From the sequence record PP216085: 64,000 nucleotides of DNA. The stretch is one strand, 5' to 3'. Position numbers and translations under genes: made by a program. Source of the DNA: Escherichia phage vB_EcoM_HZ_ZJUN4. Below the pieces are notes generated by a model, which worked only from the letters and a program-made list of their open reading frames with translations, ran no database searches and was not told where the DNA came from. Of this stretch, positions 6,301 through 48,737 are shown piece by piece (position 1 is the stretch's first letter; every line of letters begins with the position of its first letter).

Positions 6301-6774
6301 ATGTTATTGACTGGCAAATTGTACAAAGAAGAAAAACAAAAATTTTATGATGCACAAAACGGTAAATGCTTAATTTGCCAACGAGAATTAAATCCTGATG
6401 TTCAAGCTAATCACCTTGACCATGACCATGAATTAAATGGACCGAAAGCTGGAAAGGTACGTGGGTTGCTTTGTAATCTCTGTAATGCGGCAGAAGGTCA
6501 AATGAAACATAAATTTAATCGTTCTGGCTTAAAAGGACAAGGCGTTGATTATCTTGAATGGTTAGAAAATTTACTTACTTATTTAAAATCCGATTACACC
6601 CAAAATAATATTCACCCTAACTTTGTTGGAGATAAATCAAAGGAATTTTCTCGTTTAGGAAAAGAGGAAATGATGGCTGAGATGCTTCAAAGAGGATTTG
6701 AATATAATGAATCTGACACTAAAACACAATTAATAGCTTCATTTAAGAAGCAGCTTAGAAAGAGTTTAAAATGA
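6301..6774 (+). CDS. 49: endonuclease VII, Holliday junction resolvase
   Basis: 157 aa; Cys cluster CLICQ...CNLCN; matches recalled T4 gp49. Confidence 0.85.
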   Translation: MLLTGKLYKEEKQKFYDAQNGKCLICQRELNPDVQANHLDHDHELNGPKAGKVRGLLCNLCNAAEGQMKHKFNRSGLKGQGVDYLEWLENLLTYLKSDYTQNNIHPNFVGDKSKEFSRLGKEEMMAEMLQRGFEYNESDTKTQLIASFKKQLRKSLK

Positions 6775-8588
6775 CAATTGAAAAAGAAATTGAAGGATTA
6801 ATTCATAAAACTAATAAAGACCTTTTGAACGAGAATGCTAATAAAGATTCTCGTGTTTTTCCAACTCAACGGGACCTTATGGCTGGTATTGTGTCTAAAC
6901 ACATTGCCAAAAATATGGTCCCGTCTTTTATTATGAAAGCGCATGAAAGCGGAATTATTCATTTCCATGATATTGATTATTCCCCTGCTCTTCCATTTAC
7001 TAATTGCTGTTTAGTAGATTTAAAAGGAATGCTTGAGAACGGGTTTAAGCTTGGTAATGCACAGATTGAAACCCCTAAATCAATCGGCGTTGCTACTGCA
7101 ATTATGGCACAAATTACTGCACAGGTTGCTTCCCATCAATACGGTGGAACGACTTTTGCGAATGTAGATAAAGTCCTTTCTCCTTATGTTAAACGCACCT
7201 ATGCAAAACATATTGAAGACGCGGAAAAATGGCAAATCACTGATGCGTTGAATTATGCCCAATCTAAAACAGAAAAAGATGTATACGATGCGTTCCAAGC
7301 TTATGAATATGAAGTAAATACTCTCTTTAGTTCAAACGGACAAACGCCTTTTGTAACAATTACATTTGGTACGGGAACTGACTGGACTGAACGAATGATT
7401 CAGAAAGCAATTCTGAAAAATCGTATTAAAGGTCTTGGTCGTGACGGGATAACTCCTATTTTCCCTAAACTTGTTATGTTCGTTGAAGAAGGTGTTAATC
7501 TTTATAAAGACGATCCGAACTATGATATTAAGCAGCTTGCTCTAGAGTGTGCAAGCAAAAGAATGTATCCTGATATTATTTCAGCTAAGAACAATAAAGC
7601 TATCACCGGTTCATCTATTCCTGTTTCTCCAATGGGTTGCCGTAGTTTCTTGAGCGTATGGAAAGATTCGACTGGTAATGAAATTCTTGATGGACGTAAT
7701 AATCTTGGTGTTGTAACACTGAATCTTCCTCGCATTGCACTAGATTCTTATATTGGAACACAGTTCAATGAACAGAAATTTGCCGAATTGTTCAATGAGA
7801 GAATGGATTTATGTTTTGAAGCATTGATGTGTAGAATTAGTTCCTTAAAAGGAGTTAAAGCTACTGTTGCTCCTATTCTTTACCAAGAAGGTGCATTCGG
7901 GGTTCGTCTTAAACCTGATGACGATATAATTGAGTTATTTAAAAACGGTAGAAGTTCAGTGTCCCTAGGATACATTGGTATTCACGAATTGAATATTCTT
8001 GTCGGTCGTGATATTGGACAAGAAATTTTAACTAAAATGAATACTCATCTTAAGCAGTGGACTGAAAGAACCGGTTTTGCTTTTAGCTTGTATTCTACTC
8101 CTGCTGAAAACCTGTGCTATCGCTTCTGTAAACTTGATACTGAGAAATATGGAAGTGTAAAAGATGTTACTGATAAAGGATGGTACACTAATAGTTTCCA
8201 TGTTTCAGTAGAAGAAAATATCACTCCGTTTGAAAAGATTTCTCGTGAAGCACCATATCATTTCATTGCGACAGGTGGTCACATTTCTTATGTTGAACTT
8301 CCTGATATGAAAAATAACTTAAAAGGTCTTGAGGCTGTATGGGATTATGCTGCGCAACATTTAGATTATTTTGGCGTTAACATGCCAGTAGATAAATGTT
8401 TTACGTGTGGAAGTACCCATGAAATGACTCCTACTGAAAACGGATTTGTTTGTTCTATTTGTGGAGAAACTGATCCTAAAAAGATGAACACAATAAGAAG
8501 AACTTGTGGTTATTTGGGAAATCCGAATGAACGCGGATTTAATCTTGGCAAAAATAAAGAAATCATGCATAGGGTTAAACACCAATGA
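6771..8588 (+). CDS. nrdD: anaerobic ribonucleoside-triphosphate reductase NrdD (uninterrupted, no intron)
   Basis: 605 aa; C-terminal Cys cluster CFTCGS...CSICGE and glycyl-radical region RRTCGYLGNPNERGFNLGK; matches recalled T4 NrdD. Confidence 0.95.
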   Translation: MTIEKEIEGLIHKTNKDLLNENANKDSRVFPTQRDLMAGIVSKHIAKNMVPSFIMKAHESGIIHFHDIDYSPALPFTNCCLVDLKGMLENGFKLGNAQIETPKSIGVATAIMAQITAQVASHQYGGTTFANVDKVLSPYVKRTYAKHIEDAEKWQITDALNYAQSKTEKDVYDAFQAYEYEVNTLFSSNGQTPFVTITFGTGTDWTERMIQKAILKNRIKGLGRDGITPIFPKLVMFVEEGVNLYKDDPNYDIKQLALECASKRMYPDIISAKNNKAITGSSIPVSPMGCRSFLSVWKDSTGNEILDGRNNLGVVTLNLPRIALDSYIGTQFNEQKFAELFNERMDLCFEALMCRISSLKGVKATVAPILYQEGAFGVRLKPDDDIIELFKNGRSSVSLGYIGIHELNILVGRDIGQEILTKMNTHLKQWTERTGFAFSLYSTPAENLCYRFCKLDTEKYGSVKDVTDKGWYTNSFHVSVEENITPFEKISREAPYHFIATGGHISYVELPDMKNNLKGLEAVWDYAAQHLDYFGVNMPVDKCFTCGSTHEMTPTENGFVCSICGETDPKKMNTIRRTCGYLGNPNERGFNLGKNKEIMHRVKHQ

Positions 8589-9424
8589 ATTACGATAGAT
8601 TTTATCCCTGTGATTTTGTGAATGATAAATTATCTTTAATATTTGAAGAAAATAATGATTTACTATTGTCATATGTTGATTTGATAACAAAAAATTATAA
8701 TAATCCTAAAATAAAAGGAAAAACGGAAGCACATCACGTGCTTCCCAAATCTATATTTCCCGAATATAAAACAGATAAATGGAATATTGTTAATTTGTCA
8801 TATTATGACCACGCGTTAGCTCATTACTATTTAGCTAAAACAAGTAATAGTAAAATGTGTTATGCCTTTCATAGAATGATAAACTCGAATACCGATAGAT
8901 TTAATACAGATGAATTGGATGAAATTCTTAAATTGTATTCCAGTGAAAAGGAATTATTTCACCGCTCTATGTCAAAATTATCGAAAAATATATGGAAGGA
9001 TGACGATTTTAGAAAAAGACATAGAGAACTAACTAAGTTAGCAATGCAAAAACCTGAAGTTAGAAATAAAACTTTATTAAATTTGTCAAATGCAATGAAA
9101 ACTGACGAAGTTAGAAATAAAATTTCCAGGCTAACTAAGTTAGCAATGCAAAAACCTGAAGTAAAAGAAAAACATAGAAATTCATTGAGGTTGGCGTATG
9201 CAAATCCTGAGGTTATGAAAAGAAAACATCAACGTCTTCGAGAAAAATATACTCTTAATTTATTTGGCGCATATAAAGATGGTGTTCTTTTAAAAACATT
9301 TAATTATATACCAGACGCAGCAAAATATTTTAATATTTCTAGCAAAGGAAATATTTTAAAATGTTTAAATGGCGAACGTAAAAGTGTTGAAGGCTATAAT
9401 TGGAAATATATAAATGAATTATGA
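8585..9424 (+). CDS. free-standing HNH homing endonuclease (Mob-like) inserted between nrdD and nrdG
   Basis: HNH region EAHHVLPKS...NIVNLSYYDHALAH; tandem repeated modules LTKLAMQKPEV(R/K)(N/E)K; first 13 codons MNYDRFYPCDFVN nearly identical to nrdG start. Confidence 0.85.
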   Translation: MNYDRFYPCDFVNDKLSLIFEENNDLLLSYVDLITKNYNNPKIKGKTEAHHVLPKSIFPEYKTDKWNIVNLSYYDHALAHYYLAKTSNSKMCYAFHRMINSNTDRFNTDELDEILKLYSSEKELFHRSMSKLSKNIWKDDDFRKRHRELTKLAMQKPEVRNKTLLNLSNAMKTDEVRNKISRLTKLAMQKPEVKEKHRNSLRLAYANPEVMKRKHQRLREKYTLNLFGAYKDGVLLKTFNYIPDAAKYFNISSKGNILKCLNGERKSVEGYNWKYINEL

Positions 9425-9884
9425 CAGAATATACCCGTGCTGCTTTGTGAATGGCCCTGGATGCAGGACCGTTCTTTTCGTTACAGGTTGTTTGCATAAA
9501 TGTGAAGGGTGTTATAATAAATCAACATGGAATGCTAGAAATGGCGTTCCATTCACTGGTGAAACACTGGAACAATTAATTAAATGTTTGAATAATGATT
9601 ATATAGAAGGATTAACTATAACTGGAGGAGACCCTCTTTATCCTGATAACCGAGATGTTGTTCATTGCATTGTTCAAACAGTAAAAAATCTTTATCCAAA
9701 TAAAAGCATTTGGTTGTGGACAGGATATAAGTTTGAAGATATTAAACAACTAGAAATGCTTAAATATGTTGATGTTATTATTGATGGGAAGTATGAGAAA
9801 AATCTTCCGACCAAAAAGCTGTGGCGAGGTTCAGATAATCAGCGACTTTGGTCAAATACCGATGGGGTGTGGAAACATGATTAA
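9414..9884 (+). CDS. nrdG: anaerobic RNR activating enzyme NrdG (radical SAM)
   Basis: 156 aa; CLHKCEGC radical-SAM cysteine motif; N-terminus MNYDRIYPCCFVNGPGC. Confidence 0.9.
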   Translation: MNYDRIYPCCFVNGPGCRTVLFVTGCLHKCEGCYNKSTWNARNGVPFTGETLEQLIKCLNNDYIEGLTITGGDPLYPDNRDVVHCIVQTVKNLYPNKSIWLWTGYKFEDIKQLEMLKYVDVIIDGKYEKNLPTKKLWRGSDNQRLWSNTDGVWKHD

Positions 9885-9998
9885 ACTGAATTATATTATT
9901 GATACTATAAATGATATGATTTTTCATTTTGGTCCAGAATTTTATTCGCAGTATAGTTTAGTACTTATCAATGCTTGGTTAATCAATTAAGGGTAAAT

Positions 9999-10214
9999 AT
10001 GTATAAATTTCGTAAAGGTTTAGCTGATTTTCTTACAACTGTAACGTTCTTTTTGTTTATGGCAGTTGGTGCTATTTTTCTTATTCCTTTTATTGCTATA
10101 TTTTTCGTGATTAGTTTGATTTCTCCAGAAAAAGGACTGTCTTCTAGCGAGTTCAATGAACGCCTGGATAAAATTACTAATAAGCTGAATGCTGTTCTTG
10201 ATAAAAAGGATTAA
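9999..10214 (+). CDS. small membrane protein
   Basis: Track ORF 9975..10214 trimmed to ATG (MYKFRKG) after AAGGG; one long hydrophobic segment. Confidence 0.4.
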   Translation: MYKFRKGLADFLTTVTFFLFMAVGAIFLIPFIAIFFVISLISPEKGLSSSEFNERLDKITNKLNAVLDKKD

Positions 10215-46338: not shown

Positions 46339-46390
46339 AGCTTTATGATTACCGGAGTATAATATTCCCGAAACCAAACGAGGATAAGTG

Positions 46391-47941
46391 ATGATTAAGA
46401 ATGAAATTAAAATTCTAAGCGATATTGAACATATCAAAAAGCGTAGCGGCATGTATATTGGCTCTTCTGCTAATGAAATGCATGAGCGCTTTCTGTTTGG
46501 TAAATGGGAAAGTGTTCAGTATGTACCTGGTCTTGTTAAGCTTATTGATGAAATTATCGATAACTCAGTAGATGAAGGTATTCGTACTAAGTTTAAATTC
46601 GCAAATAAAATTAATGTTACTATTAAAAACAATCAAGTAACAGTTGAAGATAACGGTCGTGGTATTCCACAAGCGATGGTTAAAACACCTACCGGTGAAG
46701 AAATTCCTGGTCCTGTTGCTGCATGGACTATTCCAAAAGCAGGCGGTAACTTTGGTGATGATAAAGAACGCGTCACTGGCGGTATGAACGGTGTTGGTTC
46801 TAGTTTAACTAACATTTTTTCTGTGATGTTTGTCGGTGAAACTGGCGACGGTCAAAATAATATTGTAGTTCGTTGTTCAAATGGCATGGAAAATAAATCA
46901 TGGGAAACTATTCCTGGAAAATGGAAAGGAACTCGCGTTACTTTCATTCCTGATTTTATGTCATTTGAAACTAATGAGCTATCTCAAGTTTATCTTGACA
47001 TTACACTAGATCGTCTCCAGACACTTGCAGTAGTTTATCCTGATATTCAATTTACCTTTAATGGTAAAAAGGTTCAGGGTAATTTTAAGAAATATGCACG
47101 CCAATATGATGAACACGCTATCGTTCAAGAACAAGAAAATTGTTCTATTGCGGTTGGTCGTTCACCCGATGGTTTTCGTCAATTAACATACGTCAATAAC
47201 ATTCATACTAAGAATGGTGGCCATCACATTGACTGCGTTATGGATGATATTTGTGAAGACCTTATTCCACAAATCAAACGTAAGTTCAAAATTGACGTAA
47301 CTAAAGCACGTGTTAAAGAATGTTTGACTATCGTTATGTTTGTTCGTGATATGAAAAACATGCGATTTGATTCTCAAACTAAAGAGCGTCTGACTTCTCC
47401 ATTTGGTGAAATCCGTAGTCATATTCAGCTTGATGCTAAAAAGATTTCACGTGCTATTTTGAATAATGAAGCAATTTTAATGCCAATCATTGAAGCTGCC
47501 TTGGCTCGTAAATTGGCGGCAGAAAAAGCAGCAGAAACTAAAGCAGCTAAAAAGGCTTCTAAAGCTAAGGTTCATAAACATATTAAAGCGAATCTTTGCG
47601 GTAAAGATGCTGATACTACTCTTTTCTTGACTGAGGGTGATTCTGCTATCGGATATCTTATTGATGTTCGTGATAAAGAACTTCATGGTGGTTATCCATT
47701 GCGTGGTAAAGTTCTTAACAGTTGGGGTATGTCATATGCTGATATGCTTAAAAATAAAGAACTGTTTGATATTTGCGCAATCACTGGATTAGTTCTTGGT
47801 GAAAAGGCGTTTGAAGAAAAAGAAGATGGCGAGTGGTTTACTTTCGAACTAAATGGCGATACAATTATCGTAAATGAAAATGATGAAGTACAGATTAATG
47901 GTAAATGGATAACAGTAGGTGAATTACGAAAAAATCTATAA
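46391..47941 (+). CDS. 39: DNA topoisomerase II large subunit gp39 (GyrB-like ATPase)
   Basis: ATG after CGAGGATAA; GHKL ATPase motifs (IDNSVDEG, DNGRGIP); 516 aa. Confidence 0.92.
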   Translation: MIKNEIKILSDIEHIKKRSGMYIGSSANEMHERFLFGKWESVQYVPGLVKLIDEIIDNSVDEGIRTKFKFANKINVTIKNNQVTVEDNGRGIPQAMVKTPTGEEIPGPVAAWTIPKAGGNFGDDKERVTGGMNGVGSSLTNIFSVMFVGETGDGQNNIVVRCSNGMENKSWETIPGKWKGTRVTFIPDFMSFETNELSQVYLDITLDRLQTLAVVYPDIQFTFNGKKVQGNFKKYARQYDEHAIVQEQENCSIAVGRSPDGFRQLTYVNNIHTKNGGHHIDCVMDDICEDLIPQIKRKFKIDVTKARVKECLTIVMFVRDMKNMRFDSQTKERLTSPFGEIRSHIQLDAKKISRAILNNEAILMPIIEAALARKLAAEKAAETKAAKKASKAKVHKHIKANLCGKDADTTLFLTEGDSAIGYLIDVRDKELHGGYPLRGKVLNSWGMSYADMLKNKELFDICAITGLVLGEKAFEEKEDGEWFTFELNGDTIIVNENDEVQINGKWITVGELRKNL

Positions 47942-48737
47942 TGACTTAATAGTGCGGGGTAAAACCCGCGTTTCTAAATTTAAGGGTGAAATTCATCATA
48001 TCCTTCCAAGATCAATGGGAGGTTCTGATGATAAAGAAAATTTGGTGAAACTGACTTTTCGTGAACATTTTTTAGCACATTTTCTACTATATAAAATTCA
48101 TCGTAATCGTGAAATGGCATATGCGATGAATAGAATGTTAAACACTGAAAAATATTTACGTTCTAGTAAATTATATGAAATTACTAGAATTTACCATCAA
48201 AGAGCAGTATCTGAATGGTCAAAAAACTTTATGAAAGATAAAGTTTTAATGAGAAGTATTAAATCGGGTAAATGCGCCTTATTAATTAAAGGATCATTTA
48301 ACCCAAAGGAATGGTGCGGTGTTAATAAAGGTGTTAAGCTTCCTGGAATTAAAGGCATGACATGCTTTAAAAATGAAAAAGGCGAAGTTTTTCGTCTTCA
48401 TGTTAATGATCCACGCATTAAAGCTGAAAAATTAGTTGGTATTGGAAATACTGTTGCTGCTACTGCAAAAGCAGCTGAACTTGAAAAAGCGAAACCATGG
48501 TATAATAAATCAGCGACAAATCCAGAGGCTGTAAAATTAATACCAAATTTATATGAATGGTACGTCACGAAATATGACCCCGATCATTATAAACGAACGG
48601 GAGTTGCTAAATGGAAATCAGTTAATAATATAACTGTGAATTCAAAATTATTCGGCCGAGCATTTAATGAATTTAAACGCGGTTGGATTCCTGATGAAAA
48701 GTTCTATGAGGTGTATAATGAAATTTGTAAAAATTGA
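47919..48737 (+). CDS. mobA: HNH homing endonuclease MobA between genes 39 and 60
   Basis: 272 aa; HNH region EIHHILPRSMGGSDDKENLVKLTFREHFLAH; overlaps gene 39 end (23 nt) and gene 60 start (20 nt). Confidence 0.85.
   Translation: MNYEKIYNDLIVRGKTRVSKFKGEIHHILPRSMGGSDDKENLVKLTFREHFLAHFLLYKIHRNREMAYAMNRMLNTEKYLRSSKLYEITRIYHQRAVSEWSKNFMKDKVLMRSIKSGKCALLIKGSFNPKEWCGVNKGVKLPGIKGMTCFKNEKGEVFRLHVNDPRIKAEKLVGIGNTVAATAKAAELEKAKPWYNKSATNPEAVKLIPNLYEWYVTKYDPDHYKRTGVAKWKSVNNITVNSKLFGRAFNEFKRGWIPDEKFYEVYNEICKN

Follow-up and report, generated by a model that had tools for sequence, protein, structure and literature searches.

How can an endonuclease gene settle in the first codons of an essential-pathway gene and leave that gene in one piece? 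The question is raised by the nrdD-nrdG junction of Escherichia phage vB_EcoM_HZ_ZJUN4 (sequence record PP216085), a Tequatrovirus (T4-like phage) of which we analyzed a stretch of 64,000 nucleotides (nt), referred to below as the window. The genes there follow the order gp49, nrdD, an HNH-type endonuclease gene (HEG) and nrdG, and HEG opens with codons that closely resemble those of the nrdG gene behind it. We conclude that HEG is probably a free-standing homing-endonuclease cassette of the HNH type, which entered nrdG in frame between codons 13 and 14, uses the recipient's own ATG, and imports a replacement 5' end for the gene that it displaced. The parts of the locus on which this argument is built are the following:

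8585-9424, plus strand: HEG, complete open reading frame (ORF) of 279 amino acids (aa); PHROG 655 'homing endonuclease' (1.6e-36); called 'mobC' or 'putative homing endonuclease' in GenBank relatives

8585-8623, plus strand: R1, HEG codons 1-13, recipient-derived nrdG codons 1-13; 39/39 identical to the nrdG 5' end of the insert-free phage SF2-1

8624-9413, plus strand: HEG-specific body, codons 14-276; missing from insert-free genomes in the alignment of HEG-positive with HEG-negative sequences

9414-9452, plus strand: R2, imported replacement nrdG codons 1-13, encoding MNYDRIYPCCFVN; 39/39 identical to phages U5 and ESh24

9453-9488, plus strand: HEG-linked haplotype tract in nrdG, U5-like, with four differences from SF2-1, as located by the mismatch positions against SF2-1 and U5

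9414-9884, plus strand: nrdG, anaerobic ribonucleotide reductase activase, 156 aa, intact; Pfam Fer4_12 (3.4e-48) and Radical_SAM (5e-7)

6771-8588, plus strand: nrdD, anaerobic ribonucleotide reductase large subunit, 605 aa, intronless; Pfam NRDD (3.1e-171) and Gly_radical (1.2e-25)

The HEG ATG overlaps the nrdD stop codon (ATGA, 8585-8588) and opens a protein that starts with MNYDRFYPCDFVN, and at its other end HEG reaches 11 nt into nrdG, with its TGA stop at 9422-9424 and the nrdG start, from which MNYDRIYPCCFVN is translated, at 9414. Both overlaps had been described in an earlier sequence-only reading of this DNA and their coordinates are confirmed here, as is its observation that the HEG and NrdG N-termini agree at 11 of 13 residues, a match that a tblastn search of HEG against the 64-kb window recovers with E = 0.004. 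The similarity that it reported for the underlying DNA also holds, with 29/39 nt shared between R1 and R2, or 31/41 (76%) when one flanking base is included on each side, and the two starts lie 829 nt apart. At the scale of the whole 1.7-kb region the window is 96-98% identical to 21 Tequatrovirus genome records, in which the middle ORF is annotated as 'putative homing endonuclease'; in Yersinia phage PST it is labelled 'mobC', yet it is not an orthologue of T4 MobC.

The arrangement before insertion can be read from relatives that have no endonuclease gene, a comparison that the sequence-only reading had itself proposed as a check and whose outcome leaves its arrangement standing, since the insert-free genomes have nrdD-ATGA-nrdG. 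In Shigella phage SF2-1 the nrdD stop directly overlaps the nrdG ATG, and nrdG begins with ATGAATTACGATAGATTTTATCCCTGTGATTTTGTGAAT followed by GGCCCTGG; relative to it the window has 829 extra base pairs (bp), in frame after nrdG codon 13. This junction supports the earlier proposal that the original nrdG start was captured by the endonuclease ORF and that a second 5' end restores nrdG. Directly 3' of the insertion point come the codons for NGPGCR. Among the nrdG genes examined, the closer T4-like ones conserve them, whereas NGKGIR is read at the more distant loci (L025-L033).

Of the 'duplicated start' that had been suggested for the second 5' end, the presence of that end stands, but it was not copied in place: R2 is a different, imported allele. 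It departs from R1 at 10/39 nt, with two amino acid changes, F6I and D10C (GAT to TGC), so that the PCDF of R1 reads PCCF in R2. The insert-free phages U5 and ESh24, both of which have normal nrdD ends, start nrdG with exactly the R2 sequence (39/39), and phages T6 and CE1, in which nrdG lies behind the unrelated GIY-YIG gene segH, do so with one mismatch (38/39). A 60-nt query made from the PCCF allele matched 75 records; nearly all of the 60 matches listed have an endonuclease gene overlapping the nrdG start, and U5 and ESh24 are the only ones among the matches listed in which nrdD directly adjoins a PCCF-type nrdG. Judged by this distribution, R2 is a distinct nrdG allele that travels with the endonuclease and no local copy of R1.

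A transposon-style target-site duplication was considered and rejected, as R1 and R2 differ at 10/39 nt and each corresponds to a different natural nrdG allele. An intein or a group I intron was rejected as well: the HEG ORF ends at its TGA, nrdG restarts at its own ATG in another frame, and a second copy of the nrdG codons would be needless if splicing occurred. A further possibility is that a local tandem duplication over the nrdD/nrdG junction came first and that HEG settled between the copies later. Such events do happen at this site, for Shigella phage Sf25 (L035, ~900-1080) has a 177-bp tandem duplication exactly over the nrdD 3'/nrdG 5' junction and no endonuclease gene. The Sf25 duplication, however, includes nrdD 3' sequence, which occurs only once in the window; R2 did not arise by divergence from the local R1, its allele also occurring in other phages; and the same unit of HEG body plus R2 is found in two genera with different R1 sequences. 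Together these points make a duplication-first history very unlikely. The Sf25 repeat itself could be a scar left where a break at this hotspot was repaired aberrantly, or a step towards the duplication of gene ends.

Insert-free genomes make up most of the 827 related records in the phage collection; in 585 of the records the insert-free junction query is covered to at least 80% at a single place, a figure that includes a few HEG-positive records with two pieces joined. HEG is present in 31 records (21 Tequatrovirus and 10 Klebsiella-phage), T4 mobC in 32 and segH in 73, and the 29 IMG/VR loci around NrdG relatives, all insert-free (29/29), served as a panel of insert-free alleles. The HEG insert measures 829 bp, at one position, in the 21 Tequatrovirus records and 826 bp in three Klebsiella-phage records examined. 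A presence/absence polymorphism of this kind, at one precise site among otherwise collinear genomes, is one mark of a free-standing homing endonuclease gene.

To which side of the junction does the mobile DNA belong? Within Tequatrovirus the insertion can be phased in two ways, either as HEG body plus R2 relative to SF2-1, or as R1 plus HEG body relative to U5. The second phasing corresponds to an ordinary intergenic insertion, in which R1 would be the cassette's own N-terminus, derived from another phage's nrdG, and R2 the recipient's start; the window is indeed exactly U5 plus R1 and HEG body, and U5 and ESh24 are insert-free phages whose nrdG is of the R2 type at 39/39 positions. We therefore compared 11 HEG-positive genomes from two genera, eight of Tequatrovirus and three of Jiaodavirus (Klebsiella phages ER8, UTI-K1 and Roth04). 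The Jiaodavirus orthologue is 84.8% identical to the window's HEG in the nt sequence of the body and 87% in protein, but its upstream neighbour is a different gene (a 77-aa ORF) and its upstream flank is 37.6% identical to that of the window. Its R1 reads ATGAATTTCGACAGAATCTACCCTTCTGACTTTGTGAAT (MNFDRIYPSDFVN) and matches the insert-free Jiaodavirus-type loci L020 and L031 at 39/39 positions (38/39 in one genome), and the eight Tequatrovirus genomes have four R1 alleles, each identical at 39/39 to an allele of insert-free Tequatrovirus genomes. R1 thus equals the local insert-free allele in 11/11 HEG-positive genomes, ten of them at 39/39 and one at 38/39.

R2, in contrast, is of the PCCF type in 11/11 genomes of both genera, its Jiaodavirus version matching that of the window at 34/39 nt (87.2%), although the insert-free Jiaodavirus alleles L020 and L031 have PSDF and not PCCF. 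In the Jiaodavirus copies, moreover, the switch from local to cassette sequence falls within a 10-nt stretch, TTTGTGAATG, that is common to both parents. Since R1 varies with the host and is genus-specific in Jiaodavirus, and R2 is constant, we regard the reverse phasing as unlikely. Because R1 tracks the host and the body and R2 are common to the two genera, R1 is the recipient's and the mobile unit consists of HEG codons 14-279 and R2; as delimited by these alignments, it is the endonuclease from codon 14 to its end, the PCCF-type nrdG codons 1-13, and a few tens of nt beyond. Genome comparison thereby establishes, in addition to the anatomy of the insertion, that R1 comes from the host, that R2 is linked to the cassette and that the latter has spread across genera.

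How, then, is such a unit expressed? Codons 1-13 of HEG are the recipient's, and the N-terminal peptide predicted from the R1 start is MNYDRFYPCDFVNDK. Between R1 and the HNH motif there is no ATG, and the two TTG codons of the window copy are not conserved in the Jiaodavirus copy. At the other end, the ATGAATTATGA of R2, read in the -1 frame, supplies the last three HEG codons together with the stop (AAT GAA TTA TGA). To judge from these sequences, the HEG cassette is without a start or stop codon of its own and the R1 ATG is its only conserved start. Scans of 8200-10100 for sigma-70 promoters and terminators gave signals at the level of shuffled controls, and the T4 late-promoter consensus TATAAATA is absent from the same interval, so that the cassette appears to be promoterless. 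The layout would make a chain of translational coupling from nrdD to HEG and from HEG to nrdG, in which HEG takes over the native nrdG initiation context.

The nrdG-like opening of HEG could also be fortuitous or native to the Mob family, as T4 Mob proteins typically begin MNYxxIY: T4 MobB starts with MNYLNIYNLLI and a MobA-like ORF elsewhere in the window with MNYEKIYNDLI, and part of the corresponding match in T4 MobC could be such a consensus. HEG, however, agrees with insert-free alleles at 39/39 nt, including the codons for PCDFVN, a stretch unlike Mob proteins, and the Jiaodavirus copies of T4 mobC, described below, carry the local codon 3 (F). Furthermore, relatives of the HEG protein at other loci have unrelated N-termini (MKNFKLDINDEF..., MKDLLKSK..., MFINYINEK...), beginning MKNFKL, MKDLLK or MFINY, and align with HEG only from about residue 14. 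Chance or family resemblance is consequently an explanation to which we attach almost no probability.

The endonuclease body itself is organized in three parts:

8723-8836, plus strand: HNH (beta-beta-alpha-metal) core, residues 47-84; T4 MobC match, PHROG 12434, AlphaFold2 (AF2) model and invariant residues

9002-9250, plus strand: helical region of about five 17-aa modules ([PD][ED]V+xK...), a presumed DNA-binding linker; repeat search, blastn self-match and AF2 helices at residues 140-222

9287-9400, plus strand: putative C-terminal DNA-binding domain, NUMOD1- or I-HmuI-NUMOD-like, residues 235-272; sub-threshold Pfam matches

The core has the motif EAHHV / WNIVNL / DHALAH, in which H50, H51, N67, H76 and H80 are invariant in the homologue alignment, and the AF2 model, built from a 7-sequence alignment with an overall pLDDT of 74.8, places a strand at residues 47-51, a second strand at 68-72 and a helix at 73-84, with pLDDT ~76-91 there. 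BLASTP aligns residues 42-101 with the HNH core of T4 MobC (38% over 60 aa, E 1e-7) and the protein matches PHROG 12434 'HNH endonuclease' (3.4e-15). With catalytic His/Asn/His residues on a strand-strand-helix and homology to accepted members, HEG is placed in the HNH superfamily on indirect grounds, and the label assigned to it in the sequence-only reading is supported by motif, homology and PHROG, though not by Pfam, none of whose HNH models the protein reaches.

The tandem LTKLAMQKPEV modules to which that reading had drawn attention are likewise real repeats, although Pfam does not recognize them as NUMOD3 (PF07460) at E ≤ 0.1. Two internal 42-nt copies, at 9029-9070 and 9131-9172, are 90% identical with 32 nt exact and lie 102 nt apart, within a 51-nt (17-aa) periodicity, and the AF2 model renders residues 140-222 helical, with about five 17-aa modules that include the two near-identical LTKLAMQKPEV copies. 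Residues 235-272 reach 21.1 bits with PF22083 (cut-off 27; E 2.4e-4) and 17.3 bits with PF07453 (cut-off 22.8; E 5.6e-3), and both domains are present in the precomputed annotation of the homologue P0007; over residues 223-261 the AF2 model has two strands followed by helices, at low confidence, and the C-terminus ends in the family motif GYNWKY. This layout resembles that of I-HmuI-type HNH enzymes, which have an N-terminal HNH core, an extended linker and a C-terminal NUMOD1 or I-HmuI-NUMOD-like domain, the last being sub-threshold in HEG. Unlike those enzymes, HEG has no match to solved structures, as searches of PDB chains with the single protein and with a profile returned nothing significant, and its 17-aa repeats are not NUMOD3; NCBIfam gave neither an HNH nor a NUMOD3 match for the window protein.

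Two smaller observations concern the repeats. By eye they resemble the 'NPEVRAK' modules of P0007, which we note as a lead only. The metagenomic variant P0003 is without exactly one 34-aa (102-nt) unit, as would match recombination between the two LTKLAMQKPEV copies, and probably represents a deletion because both genera have two copies.

Is the gene still a mobile one? It could be a resident, domesticated or decaying nuclease whose nrdG-like start is a historical scar, and a few facts lean that way: one copy of the 11 is frameshifted, proteins of the MobC type are without known activity, and HEG has no direct Pfam HNH match. Yet the ratio of nonsynonymous to synonymous substitution rates (dN/dS) between the Tequatrovirus and Jiaodavirus copies is 0.07, which shows the HEG protein to be under purifying selection, the catalytic H/N/H residues are invariant in homologues, and the ORF is intact in 10/11 genomes, all of which keep the in-frame fusion. 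Furthermore, nucleotide diversity among the eight Tequatrovirus copies is 0.009-0.018 in the HEG body, below that of its flanks (0.03-0.05 in nrdD, nrdG and the downstream DNA), with 0.047 in R1, the R1 and R2 estimates being drawn from 39 nt in 8 genomes. With copies in two genera and mosaic flanks around them, we consider a gene that has ceased to move unlikely. The frameshifted copy belongs to phage BF15 (L040, 686-1526), where a 1-nt insertion (830 instead of 829 nt) leaves many in-frame stops and a truncated GenBank ORF; decay of the copy or an error in sequencing is the probable cause.

The mosaic flanks are confined to one side. The window nrdG is identical to that of U5 up to 9502, differs from SF2-1 up to 9488 and is SF2-1-like beyond, and the nrdG of ER8 (L003) has a T4-like tract at nt ~40-120 in an otherwise Jiaodavirus gene, while that of UTI-K1 is local-like at nt 60-120. 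Foreign nrdG tracts of variable length beside a cassette that occurs in two genera are evidence of horizontal spread accompanied by co-conversion. The nrdD side showed no such co-conversion in the 11 HEG-positive genomes, where R1 stays local, and a one-sided pattern of this kind is what would be expected for a break at or just downstream of the insertion point. The T4-like tract of ER8 further suggests an earlier occupation of the site by mobC, which the 279-aa HEG cassette then displaced.

Does the design extend beyond HEG? T4 mobC is a free-standing HNH gene at nrdG/nrdD whose product is listed with activity 'not determined' and 'target unknown' (2010 review, PMC2988022). It shares with HEG the locus, the orientation, the ATGA overlap of its start with the nrdD stop and a stop codon placed 11 nt into nrdG; it opens with 7 codons equal to those of nrdG (MNYDRIY), against the 13 captured by HEG, and it ends in nrdG with ...WKYKDEL, so that the pattern WKY-x-(D/N)-EL is common to T4 MobC and HEG. 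The two proteins nevertheless differ in size (210 vs 279 aa), have no detectable similarity outside the HNH core, and T4 MobC is without the 17-aa helical repeats; an orthology of HEG and T4 MobC was accordingly rejected, as only residues 42-101 align (38%). The nrdG 5' end linked to T4 mobC keeps PCDF with synonymous changes only, in contrast to the PCCF of the HEG-linked R2.

True T4 mobC copies are at least 99% identical to each other in 32 records. In the Klebsiella Jiaodavirus phages Wolf_ER13 (L047) and Boboto (L048) the mobC DNA is 100% identical to that of T4, which indicates a very recent exchange between genera. There, however, mobC begins with ATGAATTTCGACAGAATCTAT (MNFDRIY vs MNYDRIY in T4), nt 1-20 are the local nrdG allele, and the switch to T4 sequence falls within a shared 11 nt, GACAGAATCTA; behind mobC, the first ~100 nt of nrdG are T4-type and the rest local. 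A pure family consensus was thus rejected as the source of the T4 MobC-NrdG match, because the Jiaodavirus copies carry the local codon 3 (F, not Y). As mobC too combines a local start with an imported nrdG tract, two different HNH genes use the same design of start capture and replacement 5' end. The observation of the sequence-only reading is therefore real, and its interpretation is supported as essentially right and as extending to T4 mobC.

A third endonuclease gene occupies the junction. The replacement of mobC by segH in T4 relatives has been described (bioRxiv 10.1101/2022.08.31.505936), and segH is reported in place of mobC in T6, RB3, PP01 and others (Sandegren, Nord and Sjoberg 2005, as cited in PMC2988022 and bioRxiv 10.1101/2022.08.31.505936). 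In the genomes examined here segH, like HEG, is followed by a PCCF-type nrdG 5' allele (38/39 to R2); unlike HEG, SegH is an unrelated GIY-YIG protein (TIGR01453) with its own start and no capture of nrdG codons. Its activity has reportedly been demonstrated by experiment. The segH cassette carries a recoded version of the last ~60 nt of nrdD, so that NrdD ends in TPSVVPWNLGKMKEMVKRVKHA and not NPNERGFNLGKNKEIMHRVKHQ, and altered host-gene ends thus flank segH; in CE1 (L034, 1620-2540) and T6 (L038) the changed NrdD C-terminus lies after the glycyl-radical motif. Three endonuclease genes (HEG, mobC and segH) are thus in competition for this one junction, and HEG and segH are linked to the same PCCF nrdG allele.

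Known cassettes elsewhere provide partial parallels. The MobA element between T4 genes 39 and 60 has C- and N-terminal extension (CTE/NTE) tails, which are host-gene-completing sequence (bioRxiv 10.1101/2022.08.31.505936). Like HEG, both this element and mobE in nrdA of Aeromonas phage Aeh1 are HNH Mob-type cassettes in a conserved gene of an essential pathway; in those cases, however, the insertion splits the host gene into two polypeptides, and nrdG stays in one piece because the HEG cassette supplies a full replacement N-terminal segment and the 13 displaced codons are fused to the endonuclease. Fusions in frame with a host gene are also described in Allomyces macrogynus atp6 and Ophiostoma novo-ulmi rps3, where a foreign or duplicated gene end restores the host ORF (PMC4019555). 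Those mitochondrial cases involve LAGLIDADG or GIY-YIG ORFs at the 3' (C-terminal) gene end, whereas HEG is fused at the 5' end and therefore gains the host start codon and its translation-initiation context. The searchable literature, which excluded Sandegren et al. 2005, contained no description of a phage 5'-end or start-codon capture with a portable replacement 5' end.

We therefore propose the following course of events, in which cleavage activity, target site, immunity and translational coupling are what we infer from the anatomy above. The endonuclease ORF would begin at the recipient's nrdG ATG and so inherit nrdG's translational coupling to nrdD, and it would end 9-11 nt into the imported nrdG 5' end, at a TGA in another frame, coupling nrdG in turn to the endonuclease. 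The enzyme would cut or nick an nrdG without the insert at the border of codons 13 and 14 or just downstream of it, and double-strand-break repair would copy in the cassette; homology on the right would be provided by nrdG and on the left by R1, a very short arm of 39 nt. The ten R2 substitutions, including D10C, would block recombination between R1 and R2 and may also protect the restored junction from renewed cleavage.

Several points weigh against this proposal. Cleavage, nicking and homing by HEG are predictions from sequence, as they are for T4 MobC, whose activity the 2010 review (PMC2988022) leaves 'not determined'. Neither the full protein (E ≤ 0.1) nor its isolated core (E ≤ 10) matches a Pfam HNH model (PF01844, PF13392 and related ones), although T4 MobC passes Pfam HNH PF01844 with 27.6 bits against a cut-off of 21.4, and whole-chain searches with the AF2 model gave no significant fold match. 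Within Tequatrovirus the insert is described equally well as R1 plus HEG placed ahead of a U5-type nrdG, so that the cross-genus data alone decide, and the diversity values of R1 and R2 have the narrow base given above. In the restored junction, TTTGTGAAT followed by GGCCCTGG, 10 nt on the left side of the original site and all of its right side are retained, and immunity is therefore not guaranteed; SegH and Hef reportedly cut their own genomes too.

Wider readings are more tentative. Start-codon capture might be a general strategy of phage cassettes that have no promoter and no ribosome-binding site, the recoded 5' end at once preventing excision and destroying the recognition site, with PCCF a cleavage-resistant 'immunity allele', HEG and SegH aiming at one short stretch of nrdG, as their common PCCF allele would suggest, and HEG, SegH and mobC displacing one another, at which the T4-like tract of ER8 hints; taken as a whole we hold this to be possible but rather doubtful. 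As parts of it, an in-frame plug into the first codons of a conserved gene may guarantee translation in any recipient, and D10C may have been forced, synonymous changes alone altering the DNA too little.

The junction site, mobC, segH and cassettes with host-gene-completing sequence are already known, and the finding refines the picture of homing endonucleases, which in general is unchanged, and does not add a new kind of system. It does show how a cassette devoid of promoter, ribosome-binding site, start and stop can be expressed in a new genome, and how nrdG, a gene of an essential pathway, can stay intact despite the insertion. The T4 mob genes have been catalogued for decades, the MobC type without a target (PMC2988022), and the anatomy now supplies a testable prediction for two enzymes: both HEG and T4 MobC are predicted to have their target within the initial ~40-75 nt of nrdG, bordering on the conserved NGPG codons, and the PCDF alleles, the U5 PCCF allele and the HEG-positive junctions offer natural substrates for it. 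The capture also bears on annotation, as the HEG ORF of UTI-K1 (L045, 1503-2339) is annotated as 'ribonucleotide reductase class III activating protein', possibly on account of its captured nrdG codons.

Some further features of the gene and its surroundings deserve mention. An 8-bp inverted repeat, GGAAGCAC-ATCAC-GTGCTTCC, lies at 8725-8745, exactly over the catalytic EAHHVLP codons, and the Jiaodavirus orthologue has a 9-bp version, GGAAGCACA-CCA-TGTGCTTCC; it might form an mRNA hairpin or be a coincidence of coding. About 70 Tequatrovirus records (for example T2 at ~33.5 kb, and RB68) contain at a different locus a paralogous HNH gene, P0005/P0006; its 284-aa product has the same TEAHHVLPKSIFPEY core and an unrelated N-terminus of its own, and the DNA is ~73% identical over 165 nt. 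The MobA-like ORF of the window follows topoisomerase gene 39 (46388-47941), which it overlaps by 23 nt; it extends over 47919-48737 with a GTG start, encodes a 272-aa HNH protein, and is a distant paralogue of HEG (29% identity, E 6e-12). Upstream of nrdD, the neighbouring gene is the following:

6301-6774: gp49 (endonuclease VII), strong Pfam match

Finally, the window nrdD is intronless, while those of T4, PST and CE1 have the I-TevII intron, so that the two mobile elements of the nrdD-nrdG region assort independently.

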